Below are positions 3,569-34,714 of a stretch of DNA of 64,000 nt, piece by piece. Positions within the stretch are counted from its first letter, which is position 1, and every line of letters starts with the position of its first letter. The notes beneath the pieces are model-generated. The model was not told the origin of the DNA and searched no databases. It saw only the letters and a program-made list of their open reading frames with translations. This DNA is from an uncultured Nitrososphaerota archaeon (GTDB taxonomy: Archaea; Thermoproteota; Nitrososphaeria; Nitrososphaerales; Gagatemarchaeaceae): the NCBI GenBank assembly GCA_963838925.1, contig CAWISW010000003.1, positions 384,001-448,000 of the forward strand, given 5' to 3'. Both the position numbers and the translations under genes were made by a program.

Positions 3569-3711
3569 CAGACCAGTTTCTTGAGGTCGGATTTCGCTAA
3601 ATAGTTTTGTCCGACCGCGCGAATGCTTCTTTCAAAGGGACTTTGGTCTAGACTTGTCGAACCCCGCCGTGTCTCGAAAAGCTTAAGATTGAATTTGCGC
3701 CGAACAGCGTC

Positions 3712-3767
3712 GGCGGTGGAGCTCGCCATAACCGCTCGCAACCTGTTGTGGGCCAATAGCTCCTACC
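3712..3767 (+). promoter_or_regulatory. Fluoride (crcB) riboswitch
   Basis: GGCGGTGGAGCTCGCCATAACCGC...GCCAATAGCTCCTACC matches the crcB motif, with GGAGC/GCTCC pseudoknot; directly upstream of crcB. Confidence 0.9.
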
Positions 3768-3800
3768 AAACAAAACAAAAGCGAGCGGGAATGATACACG

Positions 3801-5419: not shown

Positions 5420-6109
5420 ATGGAGTTTTCGTCGCTAACTCCTGGCCGGGCGGAGCTCCTTGGAGCCATGACAGGAGACAAGCGAGTTTTCAAACAGACC
5501 CATGGCTACGGTTTCTACAAAGGATACGATTTGTCGAAATATACCCGATACATTACTTCGATTTGTCTTGGAGCCGACAAGGAATGGGGGAAAAGGCTCT
5601 CGGGCATAGCTTTCAAAGAGTTTGGAATTAGAGGATCAATCTACTGGGATCGTGACGAATGGTTCTTGTTCACCAGCTCGGCGAGATTATTCAGAGGTTT
5701 ATCCCCTTACTATTCGCCTGAATGGAATGCTAGGAAATGGAGGGTCAGCCCGGCCATACTGGCGTCTTCGTTGGAGGCGAGATGTCGCTTCGTAAAGGGC
5801 TATTTCGACGCCGACGGCTATCCGTACTTCAATAAATCTAGAAACAAGATTCTGGTGCAGGTCAATTCTGTAAACAACCGGGGACTAATGGATGTGAGAC
5901 AACTTTTGGAAAGCATGGACTTCCATCCCGGACTCTACAAGCGCTACCGAGACAAAGCGGTTTGGGAGGTCACGATTCAAAGAAAGCAAGAAATCGTGCG
6001 GTTTTCCAGGGAAATTGGTTTTAGCATCGCCAGAAAGCAGAAACGCCTATTGCGAATGATAAATCGCAAATGGCCCGGCTTAATAGTGAGTAGCGAGGGA
6101 AGGATTTGA
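5420..6109 (+). CDS. Free-standing LAGLIDADG homing endonuclease (two motifs)
   Basis: AELLGAMTGD and FVKGYFDADG motifs; IGF...RKQ C-terminal motif; stop codon lies inside the tRNA-iMet T-arm. Confidence 0.85.
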   Translation: MEFSSLTPGRAELLGAMTGDKRVFKQTHGYGFYKGYDLSKYTRYITSICLGADKEWGKRLSGIAFKEFGIRGSIYWDRDEWFLFTSSARLFRGLSPYYSPEWNARKWRVSPAILASSLEARCRFVKGYFDADGYPYFNKSRNKILVQVNSVNNRGLMDVRQLLESMDFHPGLYKRYRDKAVWEVTIQRKQEIVRFSREIGFSIARKQKRLLRMINRKWPGLIVSSEGRI

Positions 6110-6187
6110 ACCTTCGCTCTGCGGGTTATGAGCCCGCCGGGATAACAACCAACGCCTTTTGGGCGCACCTGGCTTCCCCACCTCGCT
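6091..6187 (-). tRNA. tRNA-iMet(CAT) with ~22-nt D-loop intron (~6145-6166)
   Basis: A1:U72, GCGGG-CTCATAA-CCCGC anticodon arm, GAAGGTTCAAATCCTTC T-arm. Confidence 0.92.
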
Positions 6188-27519: not shown

Positions 27520-29652
27520 TCACTCGGTCGTCGAATATTGAGCCGTGGCCGTCGACCTGCATTTTGTGCATCTTTCCGTCTTTGCAGGAAGTTTCGAGCC
27601 GCAGTTGCGGCAGAAGGACACCGTCCTCTCGATCCCGAAGAAGTCGAGCTTCGGAGTCGCGTTCAAGGCGAGGTTGTATATCCCGCGGAGGTCTAGCGAC
27701 GACGCGTCCAGGTAGACCGAGAAGCCGCCGGCCGCGGCCTGGCTGACCTTGCTCATGTAGTTCATGGTCTCCGCGTTGTTGAGGTCCTCCCCCGTCAGCC
27801 TCGCCGCCTGGGAGTACCCGCGCTTCTCGAGGCTCTGCAGGTTCGCCCTGCCGTATCTCTCCGAGTCCAGCGAGGCGAGCCTCGCCGCCCCTCCCTCCTC
27901 GATGAGCGCGATCGCGAGCCGCTCGCTCTTCCCCGACTTCTCCGAGGCCGACTGCGACGCGGTCCCCAGTATCTTCGCGGCGAGGTCCGCCCTGGCGGAG
28001 GGCGCGGCCTCCTTGCTCAGGCCGAAGAGCGCTTCGTCGAGCCCTACCAGGTTCATCACCAGCGGCATCGTCGTGGAGCTCACGTTGTCGGAGCCGAAGC
28101 TCAGCGCAGGAAGGAGCCCCTTGTTCATCACCCTCTCGAGGAGGCGCCTGCGGGTGATCAGCGCGTCGGATGCGACGCCCATGAGCATGGAGAGCTTTGC
28201 CCTGAAGTACGTCTCGTCCTGGTTGGACTCGTAGGAGAGCCTCGGGAGGTTGATCCCCAGGTTGTGCAGGACGCTGACGTTGTCGCTCTGGTTGTCGGCG
28301 GGGAGGACGTCCAGGTTGATCCCCAGGGAGCTCCTCTTCTGCCCCGAAGGGAAGAACCCGACCTTGCCTCCGTGGAATATTATGGCGGCCGCCTCCTTCA
28401 GGTACGACGTCTCCTCCGACTTGTGTGGCTTCGCGAGCAGAATCCGGAGCTGCGGCCTCGGGACCTGCTCGACGTAGTCCCTGTAGGCGTCGAGGGTTGC
28501 GCCGAGCGTCTTCTCCATGAGGTCGCGCCCCGCGTCGTCCTTGACGTAGAGGTCCAGGTGCAGGGTGACCGACGGCCGCTGCAAAGGCTGGAGCACCGAC
28601 GAGACCTGGTCGAAGAGCTTGACGAGCGCGTCGGCCACGTCCTTCTTGGTCCGGGACCGCGTGAACTGCGCGAGGTACTGTAGGAAGTTGCTGAAGACTA
28701 TCTCCTGGTTGGCCTCCTTCTTGATGAGGGGCGTGATGTTCGCGATGACGTTGATCGCCTCCTCGAGGTTCGCAGGGCTCTGGAGCATCGGGACCCCCGG
28801 GAGCCTCCCCTTGGGGTTGAACCCCGAGGCGCGGACGGAAAGGAGGTCGAGGAAGATCGTGTCAGGGATGAGCGCCCAGGTGCCGGCCTCCGAGATGTTG
28901 ATGTCCCCGTTGAGGTGAGCGTCGGAGACGTCCCTCGGGAGCTGCTCGAGCAGGAGGTACTCAGAGAAGACCGACTTGCCCGTCTGGTGGAGGAGGGACT
29001 CCGCGTCGCCGTCGTCCGCACCCGCCTTTGTGAGGAGCTGGGTTACGTCGTAGACGGGCAGGCCTAGGCGCGTGAGCTTGTGCCTGTACTCCTCCAGGTT
29101 CTGCTCGACGAGGAGCGCGTTGACCATCTCCCTGATCAGGGGCGCCGTCAGGTACTGGGTCTGGAACTTGTAGAGCCGCGATTCGGTCTCGCTCGTGATC
29201 TTCTGCGCGAGCTCGACGGGCATCCCCGCCTCCTTGACGAGCGACTGGAGTATCTTGTCCGCGTTGAACTCCTCCATCGCCTGGCGGGTCGTCCTGACGT
29301 AGAGCTTGCCGCTCTCGATCAGCGACTGCTCCTCGATCTGTCGGGTGAGGTTGAGCACGAGCCTCCCAAGGTTGGTGACCGTGTACTTCCTCTCCTGCCT
29401 GTTCAGCTGGATCAGCAGCTGGCGGACTAGCTTCCTCAGGTGGTATGCGAACTTTCCCGACTCCTTCTTGGACTTGAAGCCCGCCAGCGACTTGAGCGCG
29501 CTGTAGGTGAGAGGTCCCTTGACGTTGAGGATCTTCAGGATCTCGAGCCTCTGCGGGGAGGCGATGACGCTGTAAATTGTCCTGACTCTGCGAGGAGCGG
29601 CTTGCATCTCTACCACAGTCACCGAGTCGAAACTATATAATGATGACATCAC
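27520..29652 (-). CDS. wHTH + ATP-cone + degenerate NrdD-like protein (probable RNR regulator)
   Basis: ArsR-like N-terminus, ATP-cone (EEFNADKILQSL..EAG...TAPLIRE.V), NrdD-like body (DAHLNGDI, INLPRL); only C-terminal Zn-ribbon Cys; no RxxGY motif. Confidence 0.85.
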   Translation of the reverse strand: MMSSLYSFDSVTVVEMQAAPRRVRTIYSVIASPQRLEILKILNVKGPLTYSALKSLAGFKSKKESGKFAYHLRKLVRQLLIQLNRQERKYTVTNLGRLVLNLTRQIEEQSLIESGKLYVRTTRQAMEEFNADKILQSLVKEAGMPVELAQKITSETESRLYKFQTQYLTAPLIREMVNALLVEQNLEEYRHKLTRLGLPVYDVTQLLTKAGADDGDAESLLHQTGKSVFSEYLLLEQLPRDVSDAHLNGDINISEAGTWALIPDTIFLDLLSVRASGFNPKGRLPGVPMLQSPANLEEAINVIANITPLIKKEANQEIVFSNFLQYLAQFTRSRTKKDVADALVKLFDQVSSVLQPLQRPSVTLHLDLYVKDDAGRDLMEKTLGATLDAYRDYVEQVPRPQLRILLAKPHKSEETSYLKEAAAIIFHGGKVGFFPSGQKRSSLGINLDVLPADNQSDNVSVLHNLGINLPRLSYESNQDETYFRAKLSMLMGVASDALITRRRLLERVMNKGLLPALSFGSDNVSSTTMPLVMNLVGLDEALFGLSKEAAPSARADLAAKILGTASQSASEKSGKSERLAIALIEEGGAARLASLDSERYGRANLQSLEKRGYSQAARLTGEDLNNAETMNYMSKVSQAAAGGFSVYLDASSLDLRGIYNLALNATPKLDFFGIERTVSFCRNCGSKLPAKTERCTKCRSTATAQYSTTE

Positions 29653-29743
29653 TCAGAGTCAAATAAAATCCACCGTTCCTGAGGAGTATTGCAACTAAGA
29701 TTGAAGACTGCGTGAAAGTGTAAATTTCGCGCTGTTCTGCGCT

Positions 29744-29917
29744 CTACGCGCCGAAGTTCTTCCTCAGTTCTCCGAAGGCCCGCAACCTATCGACAAGCTC
29801 CCAGAACTCTTCGTAGCTCGTTCCCCTCCGATAAACCTCTAGCAGTTGCTTGACTAGGTCACTTTCGATTTCTGCGAGTTCTGTCCCCAGCGCTCTTCTT
29901 TCTTCTCGACTTGCCAA
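29744..29917 (-). CDS. Micro-protein C2 (57 aa)
   Basis: TTG start; MASREERRALGTELAEIESDLVKQLLEVYRRGTSYEEFWELVDRLRAFGELRKNFGA. Confidence 0.5.
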   Translation of the reverse strand: MASREERRALGTELAEIESDLVKQLLEVYRRGTSYEEFWELVDRLRAFGELRKNFGA

Positions 29918-29999
29918 TTATCGCTTCTACCGCTTTCTCCGCCAACTTCTTTCTTTCTGACGGGGGCAAATTGGAGATCTTTTCATCTTCGCTCAGCAC
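29859..29999 (-). CDS. Micro-protein C1 (46 aa, basic tail)
   Basis: MLSEDEKISNLPPSERKKLAEKAVEAIIGKSRRKKSAGDRTRRNRK; TTAAATAT box ~30040. Confidence 0.4.
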   Translation of the reverse strand: MLSEDEKISNLPPSERKKLAEKAVEAIIGKSRRKKSAGDRTRRNRK

Positions 30000-30074
30000 C
30001 CAGATTTCCCTCGCTCATGGCCTTCTGATGCACCCAGATATTTAAGCGGCTTGCAAAATCTTGGCAGGGAGAAT

Positions 30075-30100
30075 TGGTGGGGTCGCCCGGATTTGAACCG
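30075..30100 (-). repeat. Duplicated tRNA-Pro 3' end (att-like direct repeat)
   Basis: TGGTGGGGTCGCCCGGATTTGAACCGG identical to the sequence starting at 31542. Confidence 0.9.
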
Positions 30101-30165
30101 GACACGTCGGGCCCTTCCGGGTAACCTATTTACGACAGCGAGCCGACTTTCACTCGGCGTCCAGG

Positions 30166-31530
30166 TTGACTAGTCGCAGCTCTATGGCGTTTGCTGCCGC
30201 TACGATTTGCACACTGGCCTTCTATCTTCTAGTCTCCAGCTATCTCTCTCCGAATTCGGTTACGACGTCCACGAGTTCGACTGAGATCAGCACCACCCCT
30301 TCACCTTACGGCGCTCTGCTCAGGGGGTCGACGATCTACTCGCAGCTAGGCTATCCGTTGGTGAGCTACAACGGCAATTCGCAATACTCCCCAAGCAAAC
30401 CAAATTTCACCCTTTCTTACCGAAGCACTCATCTTGGTTTGGACGACGTGGGCTTTGCAGTAGCGACGCCAGTCATGAGTCTCACTCAAGCAGTTCGACT
30501 CGTTGAATCTCCGGAAGGCCCGAGTAAGGCAAACTACAGCTTGGTGGCAGCGGAATTCGACCCGGGCATAATCGTAAACAACACTGTCTGGCAATCGGCC
30601 ACTTGGCTGCTTTGGTTCGCCCAGGTCTACGACGGGTTCTGGCTCTTCGGACAAGGTAACGATGCAAGCTCATTCCTCTTCAGCGTGAACGCCGCTTCGG
30701 GCACGGTCTCGCAACCTACCAGCTTCCCTACCTACCAACCTTTGCCTGGGAACTATGCGCTAACCGTGACGGGCTCCCAGGCGATGAAAGTTGTGCGGGG
30801 ACTTGGAATCTTTTCAAGTGTCCCGTTTGAGCTGACACAAGGCGGGAACCTCACTAGTATCAGCCCTAGAATCATCAGGTTTGATTCAGGATCGAGTCTT
30901 GACATCCAGCACCCATTGAACTCTGCCCTTGATGGGACCTCGAGGCTATGCTGGATGATCTCGCTGACCTATTCCGCGTCAGCGAGCAGGCAAGGGTGGG
31001 AGGGAGAGTTCGCTGTGGACGCGCAGTCAGGCGAGCTCGACTCCGTATCCGTCGGCCCAATTTTCCCGGAGAGCTTTTTCGCAACGGTCAATTCAAATCT
31101 GGTCCAGTCGTCTGCGCGCAACCTCACAATCTCTCAGGAAACATTCCAAATGAGCGTGAATGCGACTGGACTTCCAAGCTCAATTGCCATCGCAGTTCCT
31201 GGCGTTCTTGTGGTCCGGCCAGGATCGACCGCTTCAATCGAAGTGAACTTCACGTCGAACTCTAACTACATCGCAAACCTTACCCTCTCGAATCCTCTCT
31301 CCGGCCTCCAAGGCCTTTCGGCAAACGGGCTTCCTCAAGGCGTGTCTGCAAGGTTCAGCAACACCACGCTCGCGCTTCAGGGAGGTACAAGCACCACGCG
31401 GACAATCATGCTTACGATTGAAGCGGATGCGCCTGCAGGAACATACCTGATGTACGTTGACAATCTGCCATTCTTCCTGACAGTCTGGAATGGCGCTGGT
31501 CAGTGGCCTCCGCCGCCCTCGGTTGGGTAG
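30166..31530 (+). CDS. Membrane-anchored secreted protein (PepSY-like and Ig-like segments)
   Basis: N-terminal TM, S/T linker, VNA.SG/VDA.SG repeats; bracketed by tRNA-Pro 3' repeats. Confidence 0.75.
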   Translation: MTSRSSMAFAAATICTLAFYLLVSSYLSPNSVTTSTSSTEISTTPSPYGALLRGSTIYSQLGYPLVSYNGNSQYSPSKPNFTLSYRSTHLGLDDVGFAVATPVMSLTQAVRLVESPEGPSKANYSLVAAEFDPGIIVNNTVWQSATWLLWFAQVYDGFWLFGQGNDASSFLFSVNAASGTVSQPTSFPTYQPLPGNYALTVTGSQAMKVVRGLGIFSSVPFELTQGGNLTSISPRIIRFDSGSSLDIQHPLNSALDGTSRLCWMISLTYSASASRQGWEGEFAVDAQSGELDSVSVGPIFPESFFATVNSNLVQSSARNLTISQETFQMSVNATGLPSSIAIAVPGVLVVRPGSTASIEVNFTSNSNYIANLTLSNPLSGLQGLSANGLPQGVSARFSNTTLALQGGTSTTRTIMLTIEADAPAGTYLMYVDNLPFFLTVWNGAGQWPPPPSVG

Positions 31531-31541
31531 GGGGGCAAATT

Positions 31542-31664
31542 TGGTGGGGTCGCCCGGATTTGAACCGGGGGTCTCAAGCGCCCAAGGCGACTTCTCATGC
31601 TGATTTGAAGCCTAGACCAGACTCGCCCTGCAGCTCTGAAAGCTACAGCCTAGCCGACGACCCC
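31542..31664 (-). tRNA. tRNA-Pro(TGG) with two non-canonical introns (~28 nt in D-loop, ~16 nt in anticodon stem)
   Basis: GGGGTCG/CGACCCC acceptor, encoded CCA, CAA[intron]GC-CTTGGGC-GCTTG anticodon arm, CCCGGTTCAAATCCGGG. Confidence 0.9.
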
Positions 31665-32413
31665 TTGTCCAAGGTTCTATTGCGTCTCATATTATACTCT
31701 ATCTCCGCAAATTTGGTGAAGCTGATGACTTCTCTTTTGACGGCCTTCTTGAAGTCTTGCACTTTGGGCTTGATGCGATCCCAACTTAATTCCGCCGATT
31801 CCAAGACGAGTTTCATCTTCGCAATTTTCTCCGGATGTCTTGATATCGGCAACAGCCTTTCTGCGAGCGTTCTCACTTCACTCCTTCGGCGCACCTCAAG
31901 CCTTGCCTTGGCGTCAACATCGATTCTGGAGTTTCCCTGTGCTCCATAGAGCAAGGGGTGGAAACCATCTCGGCCCAGCGCCGCTGCAGATTCTCTTAGG
32001 ATTCTTCTATCCTTTGATTCGATTACAAATGCAACTGCGGCGCTTCCTTTGTCATTGTAGAGGCACCAAGAACCTTCAGAATCGGAGTAGCCTCCGAAGA
32101 ACGGATAGAATAAGGTAGAAGTGATAGGAATCGCCTCCGGCTTCTTCACGAAGAATGCAAAGCTCGGATCAAGATAGACGGAAAGTTTCCAACAATAGCG
32201 TCCGGGCAAGTAGGCCTTGTCGGGAGTCATCTTGCATTGGCCATATTTCCTGAATGTCAAGAAGAAAAGTTCGGCCATCGCCGGATGAGTTGTGCTAAGA
32301 CGTGCCCATACTGTGTAGCGAGAATTCCAACACCCATTCAAGTCTCCGGCCCTTAGTCCGCTGAGATAGGCCCTCTCGCTACAGTCTCCGGCGAATGGAT
32401 TTCGAGAGATCAC
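31643..32413 (-). CDS. Free-standing LAGLIDADG homing endonuclease (two motifs)
   Basis: AYLSGLRAGD and FFGGYSDSEG motifs; stop codon inside the tRNA-Pro D-loop intron. Confidence 0.85.
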   Translation of the reverse strand: MISRNPFAGDCSERAYLSGLRAGDLNGCWNSRYTVWARLSTTHPAMAELFFLTFRKYGQCKMTPDKAYLPGRYCWKLSVYLDPSFAFFVKKPEAIPITSTLFYPFFGGYSDSEGSWCLYNDKGSAAVAFVIESKDRRILRESAAALGRDGFHPLLYGAQGNSRIDVDAKARLEVRRRSEVRTLAERLLPISRHPEKIAKMKLVLESAELSWDRIKPKVQDFKKAVKREVISFTKFAEIEYNMRRNRTLDKGSSARL

Positions 32414-32438
32414 ACCCCCTAATCATGATGATGCATTA

Positions 32439-32485
32439 AAGCGCCCAGTCTGCTTGAAGCCTAGACCAGCCTAGCCGACGACCCC
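32439..32485 (-). pseudogene. Orphan intron-less 5' half of tRNA-Pro
   Basis: GGGGTCGTCGGCTAGGCTGGTCTAGGCTTCAAGC-AGAC-TGGGCGCTT equals the spliced 5' part of the tRNA at 31664 with an altered loop. Confidence 0.85.
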
Positions 32486-34574: not shown

Positions 34575-34714
34575 TGGTGGGGACGGCCGGACTTGAACCG
34601 ACGGATCACAGGTATCGCCGCTCCGATGGGAAATCATCCACGCAAGCGTGTCATCAAACCTTTTGTCGTTTGACCACTGGAGCCTGTTGCCATGCCTGTC
34701 TAGGCTACGTCCCC
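34575..34714 (-). tRNA. tRNA-Trp(CCA) with a 63-nt canonical 37/38 intron (34614-34676)
   Basis: GGGGACG/CGTCCCC, ACAGG-CTCCAG|A-CCTGT, GTCGGTTCAAGTCCGGC, encoded CCA; intron contains TGATGA. Confidence 0.92.

Follow-up and report, generated by a model that had tools for sequence, protein, structure and literature searches.

The gene for tRNA-Pro(UGG) in an archaeal genome assembled from a metagenome has probably been invaded by a free-standing cassette encoding a LAGLIDADG homing endonuclease, which would have replaced the 5′ part of the gene and reshuffled introns that already existed. The genome (G000) amounts to 1.84 Mb in 3 contigs and is 87% complete, and the DNA data sets that match it best are soil and peat metagenomes. 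The window, that is, the whole stretch of DNA analysed here, comprises 64,000 nucleotides (G000:C3:384001-448000). On the minus strand of its positions 32560-31480, the end of a gene for methylpurine-DNA glycosylase (MPG; PF02245, E 3.9e-65) is followed in order by the TATA-like box ATAACTAA, a dead 5′ part of tRNA-Pro (the stub), a linker, the nuclease ORF and a live tRNA-Pro(UGG) gene (Table 1). The GC content of the nuclease ORF is 0.50 as against 0.61 for the genome, a foreign composition. Directly after the live tRNA there is a second insertion of about 1.44 kb (30102-31540), which contains a plus-strand ORF (30166-31530) for 454 amino acids of no known family; G020, a relative, does not have this insertion.

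Table 1. Features of the tRNA-Pro(UGG) locus, in window coordinates
Feature	Coordinates	Strand	Remarks
Native TATA-like box ATAACTAA	32512..32519	(-)	-34..-27 of stub; overlaps end of MPG gene
Dead tRNA-Pro stub	32439..32485	(-)	47 nt, positions 1-42; former 5′ part, intron-less
Linker, stub to nuclease ORF	32414..32438	(-)	25 nt
LAGLIDADG homing-endonuclease ORF	31643..32413	(-)	256 aa, GTG start
TATAATAT inside nuclease ORF	31689..31696	(-)	codons of EIEYN motif; -32..-25 of live tRNA
Live tRNA-Pro(UGG) with encoded CCA	31542..31664	(-)	
Intron 1	31622..31649	(-)	28 nt, position 15/16; relaxed bulge-helix-bulge motif
Intron 2	31589..31604	(-)	16 nt, position 29/30; strict bulge-helix-bulge motif
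Direct repeat of tRNA 3′ end	30074..30101	(-)	28 nt, equals 31541-31568; closes second insertion of ~1.44 kb

The live gene looks functional, as judged from the motifs of its introns and from its being the sole UGG gene found. It runs from 31664 to 31545 (120-nt precursor) with the anticodon TGG, and CCA is encoded at 31544-31542. Every possible splice register was scored for each tRNA-Pro gene of this locus and of its relatives, and the best bulge-helix-bulge (BHB) register divides the window gene into exon 1 (31664-31650), exon 2 (31621-31605) and exon 3 (31588-31545). The two non-canonical introns that the original prediction had read in this gene are thus borne out as predicted BHB introns at positions 15/16 and 29/30. 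Intron 2 has the archaeal form of the motif: two 3-nt bulges (AA/A and UC/G, the slash marking the cut) on either side of a 4-bp central helix, CUUC/GAAG, with all four pairs formed, and outer and inner helices of 3 bp each. The four pairs and the GAAG strand are kept in 18 of 20 relatives with intron 2, while the remainder of the intron is variable. For intron 1 a single register, with the cut between G15 and position 16, fits all genes. Its central helix, GGCU/GGC(U/G/A), has 4/4 pairs in 8 genes and 3/4 in 6 including the window gene, in which the outer helix is absent; among the 14 properly anchored genes, 13 form all four pairs of the inner helix, for which there are at least five different sequences (CUGU/GCAG, CGUA/UGCG, CCGC/GCGG, CCAA/UUGG and UUGU/ACGA), so that the pairing is maintained by covariation. 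When the 120-nt precursor is folded freely (z -2.25), the acceptor and T arms both form, intron 1 shows its AGG bulge and its hairpin, and intron 2 shows its CUUC/GAAG helix with the AAA bulge and the UCA/UGA hairpin; an Rfam search did not detect the gene. The one other tRNA-Pro gene found in G000 is a CGG gene with three introns (C3:228924-229075), and the window gene is therefore the sole UGG gene seen.

The stop codon of the nuclease ORF, a TAG, falls in intron 1; together with the 7 codons before it, this stop lies within the tRNA gene, so that the ORF covers the first 22 nt of that gene, just as had been predicted. The box predicted upstream of the tRNA is likewise present as TATAATAT. 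It occupies a position close to that expected from the 24 other tRNA genes of G000, in 19 of which the most AT-rich 8-mer starts at -38 to -29, and it is presumed to be the promoter of the live tRNA.

The first 34 nt of the stub are identical to the joined exons of the live gene (blastn against the whole genome, E 1.4e-13); four odd letters follow, and then nine identical nucleotides corresponding to positions 34-42. This sequence had been described as the same 5′ half with both introns precisely absent. It is indeed intron-less, but the absence is not precise. Position 16 is G in the stub and T in both the predicted spliced tRNA and all relatives lacking intron 1, so the stub differs from the spliced sequence, reading GGCTAGGCTGG where the spliced tRNA would read GGCUAG-UCUGG. 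Its anticodon loop has AGAC in place of CT in the live gene, and the stub corresponds to a live gene that has lost 28 bp, with the register 1-3 nt off the splice sites. The G at position 16 would fit better with a deletion of DNA from an intron-bearing gene than with a native intron-less allele. The locus does not represent a split, trans-spliced tRNA, in which neither half is complete: a complete gene adjoins the stub.

What did the locus look like before the cassette arrived? The flank with the native TATA-like box ATAACTAA directly precedes a tRNA gene in G006, G020, G022 and G008. The MPG flank joins directly to an intron-less tRNA-Pro(UGG) in G006, to a two-intron (1 and 2) tRNA-Pro without a nuclease, 94% identical to the live gene, in G020, and in G022 and G008 to tRNA-Pro genes that have a canonical third intron in addition to introns 1 and 2. 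The recipient allele at the window locus may have been intron-less like that of G006 or intron-bearing like that of G020. Contigs from four DNA runs also contain cassette-free tRNA-Pro alleles, which come from other related organisms; none from the strain of G000 itself was found among these contigs. Altogether, 14 tRNA-Pro genes with no nuclease next to them have introns 1 and/or 2: those of G020, G022 and G008, which are at the MPG-flanked place, those of G005, G011, G004, G016, G007, G001 and G021, and the CGG paralogs of G013, G024, G012 and G009, located elsewhere in their genomes. The introns of the window gene are older than the nuclease, and the cassette is not their origin. The proposal that homing is a source of non-canonical introns is accordingly not supported here, the same introns being common without a nuclease, CGG paralogs included.

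The association of the nuclease with tRNA-Pro is recurrent. Among 41 genomes, the five best relatives of the nuclease all read into a tRNA-Pro gene. In a species collection, where the relatives are metagenome-assembled genomes labelled Nitrososphaerales or Thaumarchaeota, 6 of 17 examined nuclease loci do so, three of them repeating G002, G010 and G015. This gives eight distinct loci at which a nuclease of the window clade reads into tRNA-Pro: the window itself, G002, G010, G015, L072, L073, L076 and a frameshifted second locus of G018. At each of the seven loci other than the window, the frame reaches the TAG that belongs to the tRNA itself at positions 13-15. The loci span at least three gene neighbourhoods, with UGG beside MPG, CGG beside a Dpo4-like gene, and others. 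A paralog in G000 likewise reads into tRNA-Gln(UUG), and a search with 10-nt words found no stub upstream of it. In the wider family no tRNA was found beside the nuclease at 27 + 11 + 11 other loci, by a crude scan that can miss multi-intron tRNA genes.

Not all of these copies are intact. Start-less or frameshifted nuclease genes are present in G010 and G018, and relics consisting of the last codons with the TATA are seen at the UGG loci of G017 and G014, in G024 and at the CGG locus of G000 itself. That copies are found in all states, intact, broken or relic, suggests the familiar cycle in which invasion is followed by decay and loss. At the relic loci the TATA-bearing end of the ORF has been retained where the remaining nuclease has decayed. 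Together with reading into the tRNA at 8/8 loci and stubs at 3/8, these retained ends uphold the idea that a tRNA-Pro 5′ part and a promoter move together with the nuclease gene.

A stub of the former 5′ part is kept at three of the eight loci (window, G010 and L076), and is thus unnecessary for the arrangement. At all three, the intron set of the stub differs from that of the live gene, each in its own way. In the window, an intron-less stub accompanies a live gene with introns 1 and 2, which amounts to a gain. In G010, the stub comprises positions 1-29 followed by 3 nt from the start of intron 2, and intron 3 is the sole intron of the live gene, a swap. In L076, the genome of which has a further UGG gene elsewhere, introns 1 and 2 are both in the stub, which extends to position 35 and has T34, and the live CGG gene has intron 2 alone, a loss. 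The presence of stubs indicates that the cassette brings a foreign 5′ part, and the varying direction of the change indicates that it shuffles introns rather than adding them. G018 offers a fourth case of another kind, in which the ORF is an unrelated one-motif LAGLIDADG ORF on the opposite strand, the stub extends over positions 1-15/17, and the live gene, which has introns 1 and 3, is preceded by a TTTTAATAAAAA box at -30..-19.

Two further candidates were rejected. A decayed stub in G002 has some likeness by eye, yet 690 of 2000 shuffles reach its score. A conserved left end of the cassette was sought in G000, G002, L076 and G010; MAFFT does not align the stretches, and their local scores are matched by 140, 329 and 402 of 2000 shuffles. 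The 25-nt linker has no significant likeness to the corresponding stretch of G002, G010 or L076. With no conserved left end and no significant stub in G002, a role of the stub as the left homology arm loses support.

How could a nuclease gene enter a tRNA gene without destroying it? In the process envisaged here, the enzyme would cut cassette-free tRNA-Pro genes, probably in the anticodon arm, since the stubs end at positions 29-42. For repair, a cassette-bearing locus would serve as the template, the tRNA providing homology on the 3′ side, while the join on the 5′ side would be untidy or illegitimate and would sometimes leave a stub. Support for such homing comes from the cassette being present or absent at one and the same place among relatives and from its spread over several gene neighbourhoods. 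The imported 5′ part with introns at 15/16 and 29/30 would then be fused to the resident 3′ part to form the live gene, and the resident 5′ part, behind its native promoter, would be displaced upstream to become the dead stub. The TATA within the last codons of the ORF would now drive the tRNA, and the nuclease may be transcribed from the captured native promoter via the stub. As the old 5′ part gives way to the imported one, pre-existing BHB introns could be added, swapped or removed at each invasion.

The window ORF contains the LAGLIDADG motifs YLSGLRAGDLNG and FFGGYSDSEGS. Their acidic residues are conserved: G23 and D24 are invariant in five relatives, and in motif 2 the residue preceding the G is acidic in all five (E or D). 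The window protein alone matches Pfam LAGLIDADG_3 (PF14528) below the cut-off (E 0.023, 15.4 bits against 22.5), and four of the five relatives match this family, with a best E of 5.7e-7. A profile built from the five relatives finds I-AniI at E 1.1e-4 and then other LAGLIDADG enzymes. The structure model of the window protein is mediocre overall (pLDDT 67, pTM 0.61), with pLDDT of 80-93 in the C-terminal domain and about 50 in the N-terminal one, and the two predicted domains each have the alpha-beta-beta-alpha-beta-beta-alpha order. Of the best 50 Foldseek matches listed (E 3e-7 to 2e-4, TM about 0.32-0.49 on the query), nearly every one is a LAGLIDADG enzyme, including E-DreI, archaeal I-Tsp061I, I-AniI and I-DmoI; one is WhiA, which has the LAGLIDADG fold. 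Comparison with the G002 copy, which is identical at 150 of 244 residues (61%), gives a dN/dS of 0.11 with dS saturated. By these comparisons of sequence and predicted fold, the window ORF encodes a LAGLIDADG nuclease under purifying selection. Contigs from the four DNA runs provided one nuclease variant 95% alike the window copy, with 12 synonymous and 11 non-synonymous changes among the 23 listed.

Four paralogs of the nuclease are encoded in G000, with 30-37% identity and all with an N-terminal helix-turn-helix extension. This extension of about 100-130 aa, which is also found in some of the relatives linked to tRNA-Pro, is missing from the window copy; without it, and with its GTG start, the window nuclease could be inactive. 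The family is present in 18 of 24 genomes of the same taxonomic family and in none of 16 from other families of the order. A class-wide profile search matched 8 of 301 genomes at E 1e-10, and more distantly related proteins are found in DPANN archaea and CPR bacteria.

The original prediction regarded the introns as immunity insertions that break the nuclease site, so that homing would drive the gain of non-canonical introns and perhaps account for their origin. This is unlikely to be the case. It agrees with the window, where both introns are in the live gene and neither is in the stub, and with the stubs ending within the anticodon arm; the intron-less allele of G006 at the same place also means that the locus may have regained introns via the cassette. 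An anticodon-arm intron (29/30 or 37/38) is moreover present in all eight nuclease-linked tRNA-Pro genes, but as many as 16 of 19 genes without a nuclease of the window clade have one as well, so that 8/8 is no enrichment. The polarity is not constant either: the live genes of G010 and L076 have fewer introns than their stubs or different ones, and their stubs show that alleles bearing intron 2 were invaded. With intron 2 in two of the three stubs, this intron did not block invasion. Across related genomes, as the 14 intron-bearing genes without a nuclease demonstrate, introns occur independently of an adjacent nuclease, an outcome that the original prediction had itself named as refuting it. 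An intron-bearing allele may still be immune to this particular enzyme. A related idea, that tRNA introns protect against viral and plasmid integrases, is attributed to Randau and Soll (2008) where it is cited in PMC4090602; both ideas have in common that an intron splitting the target site in the tRNA would block a mobile element. The two of three invaded alleles that already had intron 2 leave it unsupported here.

According to a second alternative, the stub is the attachment-site repeat of a decayed plasmid or virus that carried an integrase, and the nuclease is a passenger or later arrival. Such a model has been proposed for tRNA-Thr of Caldiarchaeum in the account given in PMC3293823, the 28-nt 3′ repeat of the same tRNA around the 1.44-kb insert is typical of integrase events, and a low-GC island extends over about 29450-32450. 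We nevertheless consider this improbable for the nuclease cassette. Direct repeats (34 + 9 nt) are present, but no integrase or recombinase domain lies between them, the nuclease being the only ORF in an insert of 0.8 kb. The nuclease clade moreover recurs at eight loci in several neighbourhoods, reading into tRNA-Pro at every one, and the stub ends vary from locus to locus (positions 42, 29 + 3 nt and 35), a misfit with one fixed attachment site.

It is hardly credible that the locus is one tRNA-Pro with a giant nuclease-encoding intron of 865-870 nt, the stub being exon 1 and the second 5′ half intronic. With introns allowed, ARAGORN does join 31542-32485, the very span of the original prediction, into a single tRNA-Pro whose intron measures 865 nt; such an intron would share the 3′ splice site of intron 2 and find the same CUUC and AA on its 5′ side in the stub. 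But no inner helix can form beside the 5′ site of the stub, whereas the local copy has the complete motif; the inner 5′ half is preceded by a TATA of its own at the customary spacing and contains an intron 1 that shows covariation; and five of the eight loci have no stub. The same architecture would be unspliceable as a giant intron in G010, where the live gene has no 29/30 intron, and in L076, where the stub runs to position 35. Nor is the ORF intron-encoded, as it lies upstream of tRNA position 1. The nine other giant-intron calls of ARAGORN that were examined lie in coding regions or are mis-joined multi-intron tRNA genes.

Invasion by a free-standing homing-endonuclease cassette has partial counterparts in other systems. 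T4-like phages have free-standing homing endonucleases in their tRNA gene region, for example SegB, a GIY-YIG enzyme, and such enzymes spread by a break in the nuclease-free allele and co-conversion of the flanking tRNA sequence. As with SegB, the nuclease gene described here is outside any intron or intein and beside tRNA genes; to our knowledge, SegB involves no duplicated tRNA part, overlap between ORF and tRNA or donation of a promoter. Nucleases of archaeal rRNA BHB introns, such as I-DmoI and I-Tsp061I, are similar in having the same fold, an archaeal host and a conserved stable-RNA gene as the target. They differ in that their ORFs are inside a spliced intron and the integrity of the gene is secured by splicing, whereas here the ORF is upstream of the mature 5′ end and integrity would be secured by a duplicated 5′ part. 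SegB is named in PMC13096335, and the group I introns reported in PMC6125680 are, by its account, all in archaeal rRNA genes (39/39). In the openly available literature that was searched, no paper described a LAGLIDADG gene next to a tRNA gene of an archaeon.

The closest precedent in the literature covered is the tRNA-Thr(GGU) locus of Caldiarchaeum subterraneum as presented in PMC3293823. According to that account, the 5′ fragment situated upstream comes from an allele that has fewer introns (Sugahara et al., 2012; PMC3293823), the insert is 1,868 bp with one 813-bp ORF directly beside the tRNA on the same strand, and the live tRNA-Thr is complete with one additional non-canonical intron. 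The ORF belongs to a family described there as having several copies per genome, another being located by tRNA-Thr(CGU). The ORF was taken for a putative recombinase by a function-prediction program, integrase-type site-specific recombination was modelled, and gain of the intron through a mobile element was inferred (PMC3293823); the words 'homing' and 'LAGLIDADG' are absent from the main text of that paper. Set against this description, the locus in the window has an ORF for a LAGLIDADG nuclease, which overlaps the tRNA and carries its presumed promoter, and there are several loci with intron gain, swap and loss. The Caldiarchaeum ORF 'b', as it is described, resembles the window nuclease in size and position. 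It is conceivable, if on balance doubtful, that such cassettes serve generally to carry BHB introns from one allele or paralog of an archaeal tRNA gene to another and that the 'recombinase' element of Caldiarchaeum tRNA-Thr is of the same kind.

The manner in which introns arrive at new tRNA genes in archaea is an open question, and a 2026 preprint on Asgard tRNA genes found no general route, as its abstract states (10.64898/2026.10.13.758758). If cassettes of this kind do serve as a general vehicle, they would provide one concrete route of intron arrival and loss. The loci described here would represent one such route caught in the act, with natural examples of gain, swap and loss. The cassette would also be harmless in an unusual way, as a selfish gene that is neither spliced out nor confined to a spacer but rebuilds the gene that it breaks and donates a promoter to it. 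Its enzymes would be new meganucleases with tRNA genes as their targets.

At the tRNA-Gln(UUG) gene of the genome under study, the frame of a paralogous LAGLIDADG ORF carrying the N-terminal helix-turn-helix extension runs into the tRNA gene and ends at a TAG of the tRNA itself (positions 13-15); a word search with 10-nt words found no stub, the left-over former 5′ part of a tRNA gene, upstream of this nuclease. At a tRNA-Pro locus of a related genome, G018, the space that separates the live gene from a tRNA-Pro stub of 15-17 nt holds, on the other strand, a LAGLIDADG ORF (about 180 aa) that has a single motif and is unrelated to the window nuclease. This ORF is a separate, independent invasion of the same locus.

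Next to the tRNA-Pro of the window there is also a second insertion, which contains a 454-aa ORF with a paralog elsewhere on the contig (42% identity). The 3′ end of the tRNA-Pro recurs as a 28-nt direct repeat that borders the insertion. The insertion contains no integrase and is absent from G020 and other relatives.

Coordinates of the features (G000, genome under study; C2, C3 and C7, contigs)
Feature	Location	Strand	Remark
Fluoride riboswitch match	window 3703-3772	+	37.4 bits (cut-off 34); archaeal genome
Conflicting tRNA calls	window 6090-6187	-	ARAGORN, 98 nt; Rfam, 31.5 bits
Second insertion	window 30074-31568		~1.44 kb
454-aa ORF	window 30166-31530	+	without Pfam family
tRNA-Trp(CCA), ARAGORN	window 34578-34714	-	Rfam 44.7 bits
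ORF at tRNA-Gln(UUG), L003	G000:C2:217680-218509		
Paralog of 454-aa ORF	G000:C3:9116-10585		
tRNA-Pro(CGG)	G000:C3:228924-229075		introns at 15/16, 29/30, 37/38
G018 tRNA-Pro locus, L016	G018:C7:813467-816554		

Only 25 tRNA matches exceed the Rfam cut-off across the whole genome, and several of its tRNA genes have two or three short introns, so that many escape standard finders. ARAGORN and Rfam disagree on one window tRNA: the former calls tRNA-Pro(tgg), and the alignment of the latter has a CAU anticodon loop and a gapped D arm, which makes a Met/Ile-type tRNA whose D arm is interrupted by an intron the probable identity.

The sequence upstream of tRNA-Pro(CGG), GAGATAGGATATAAAGCGAGACA, is similar to the final codons of the nuclease gene that stands at the CGG locus of G018. 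The region looks like a nuclease relic that at present acts as a promoter.
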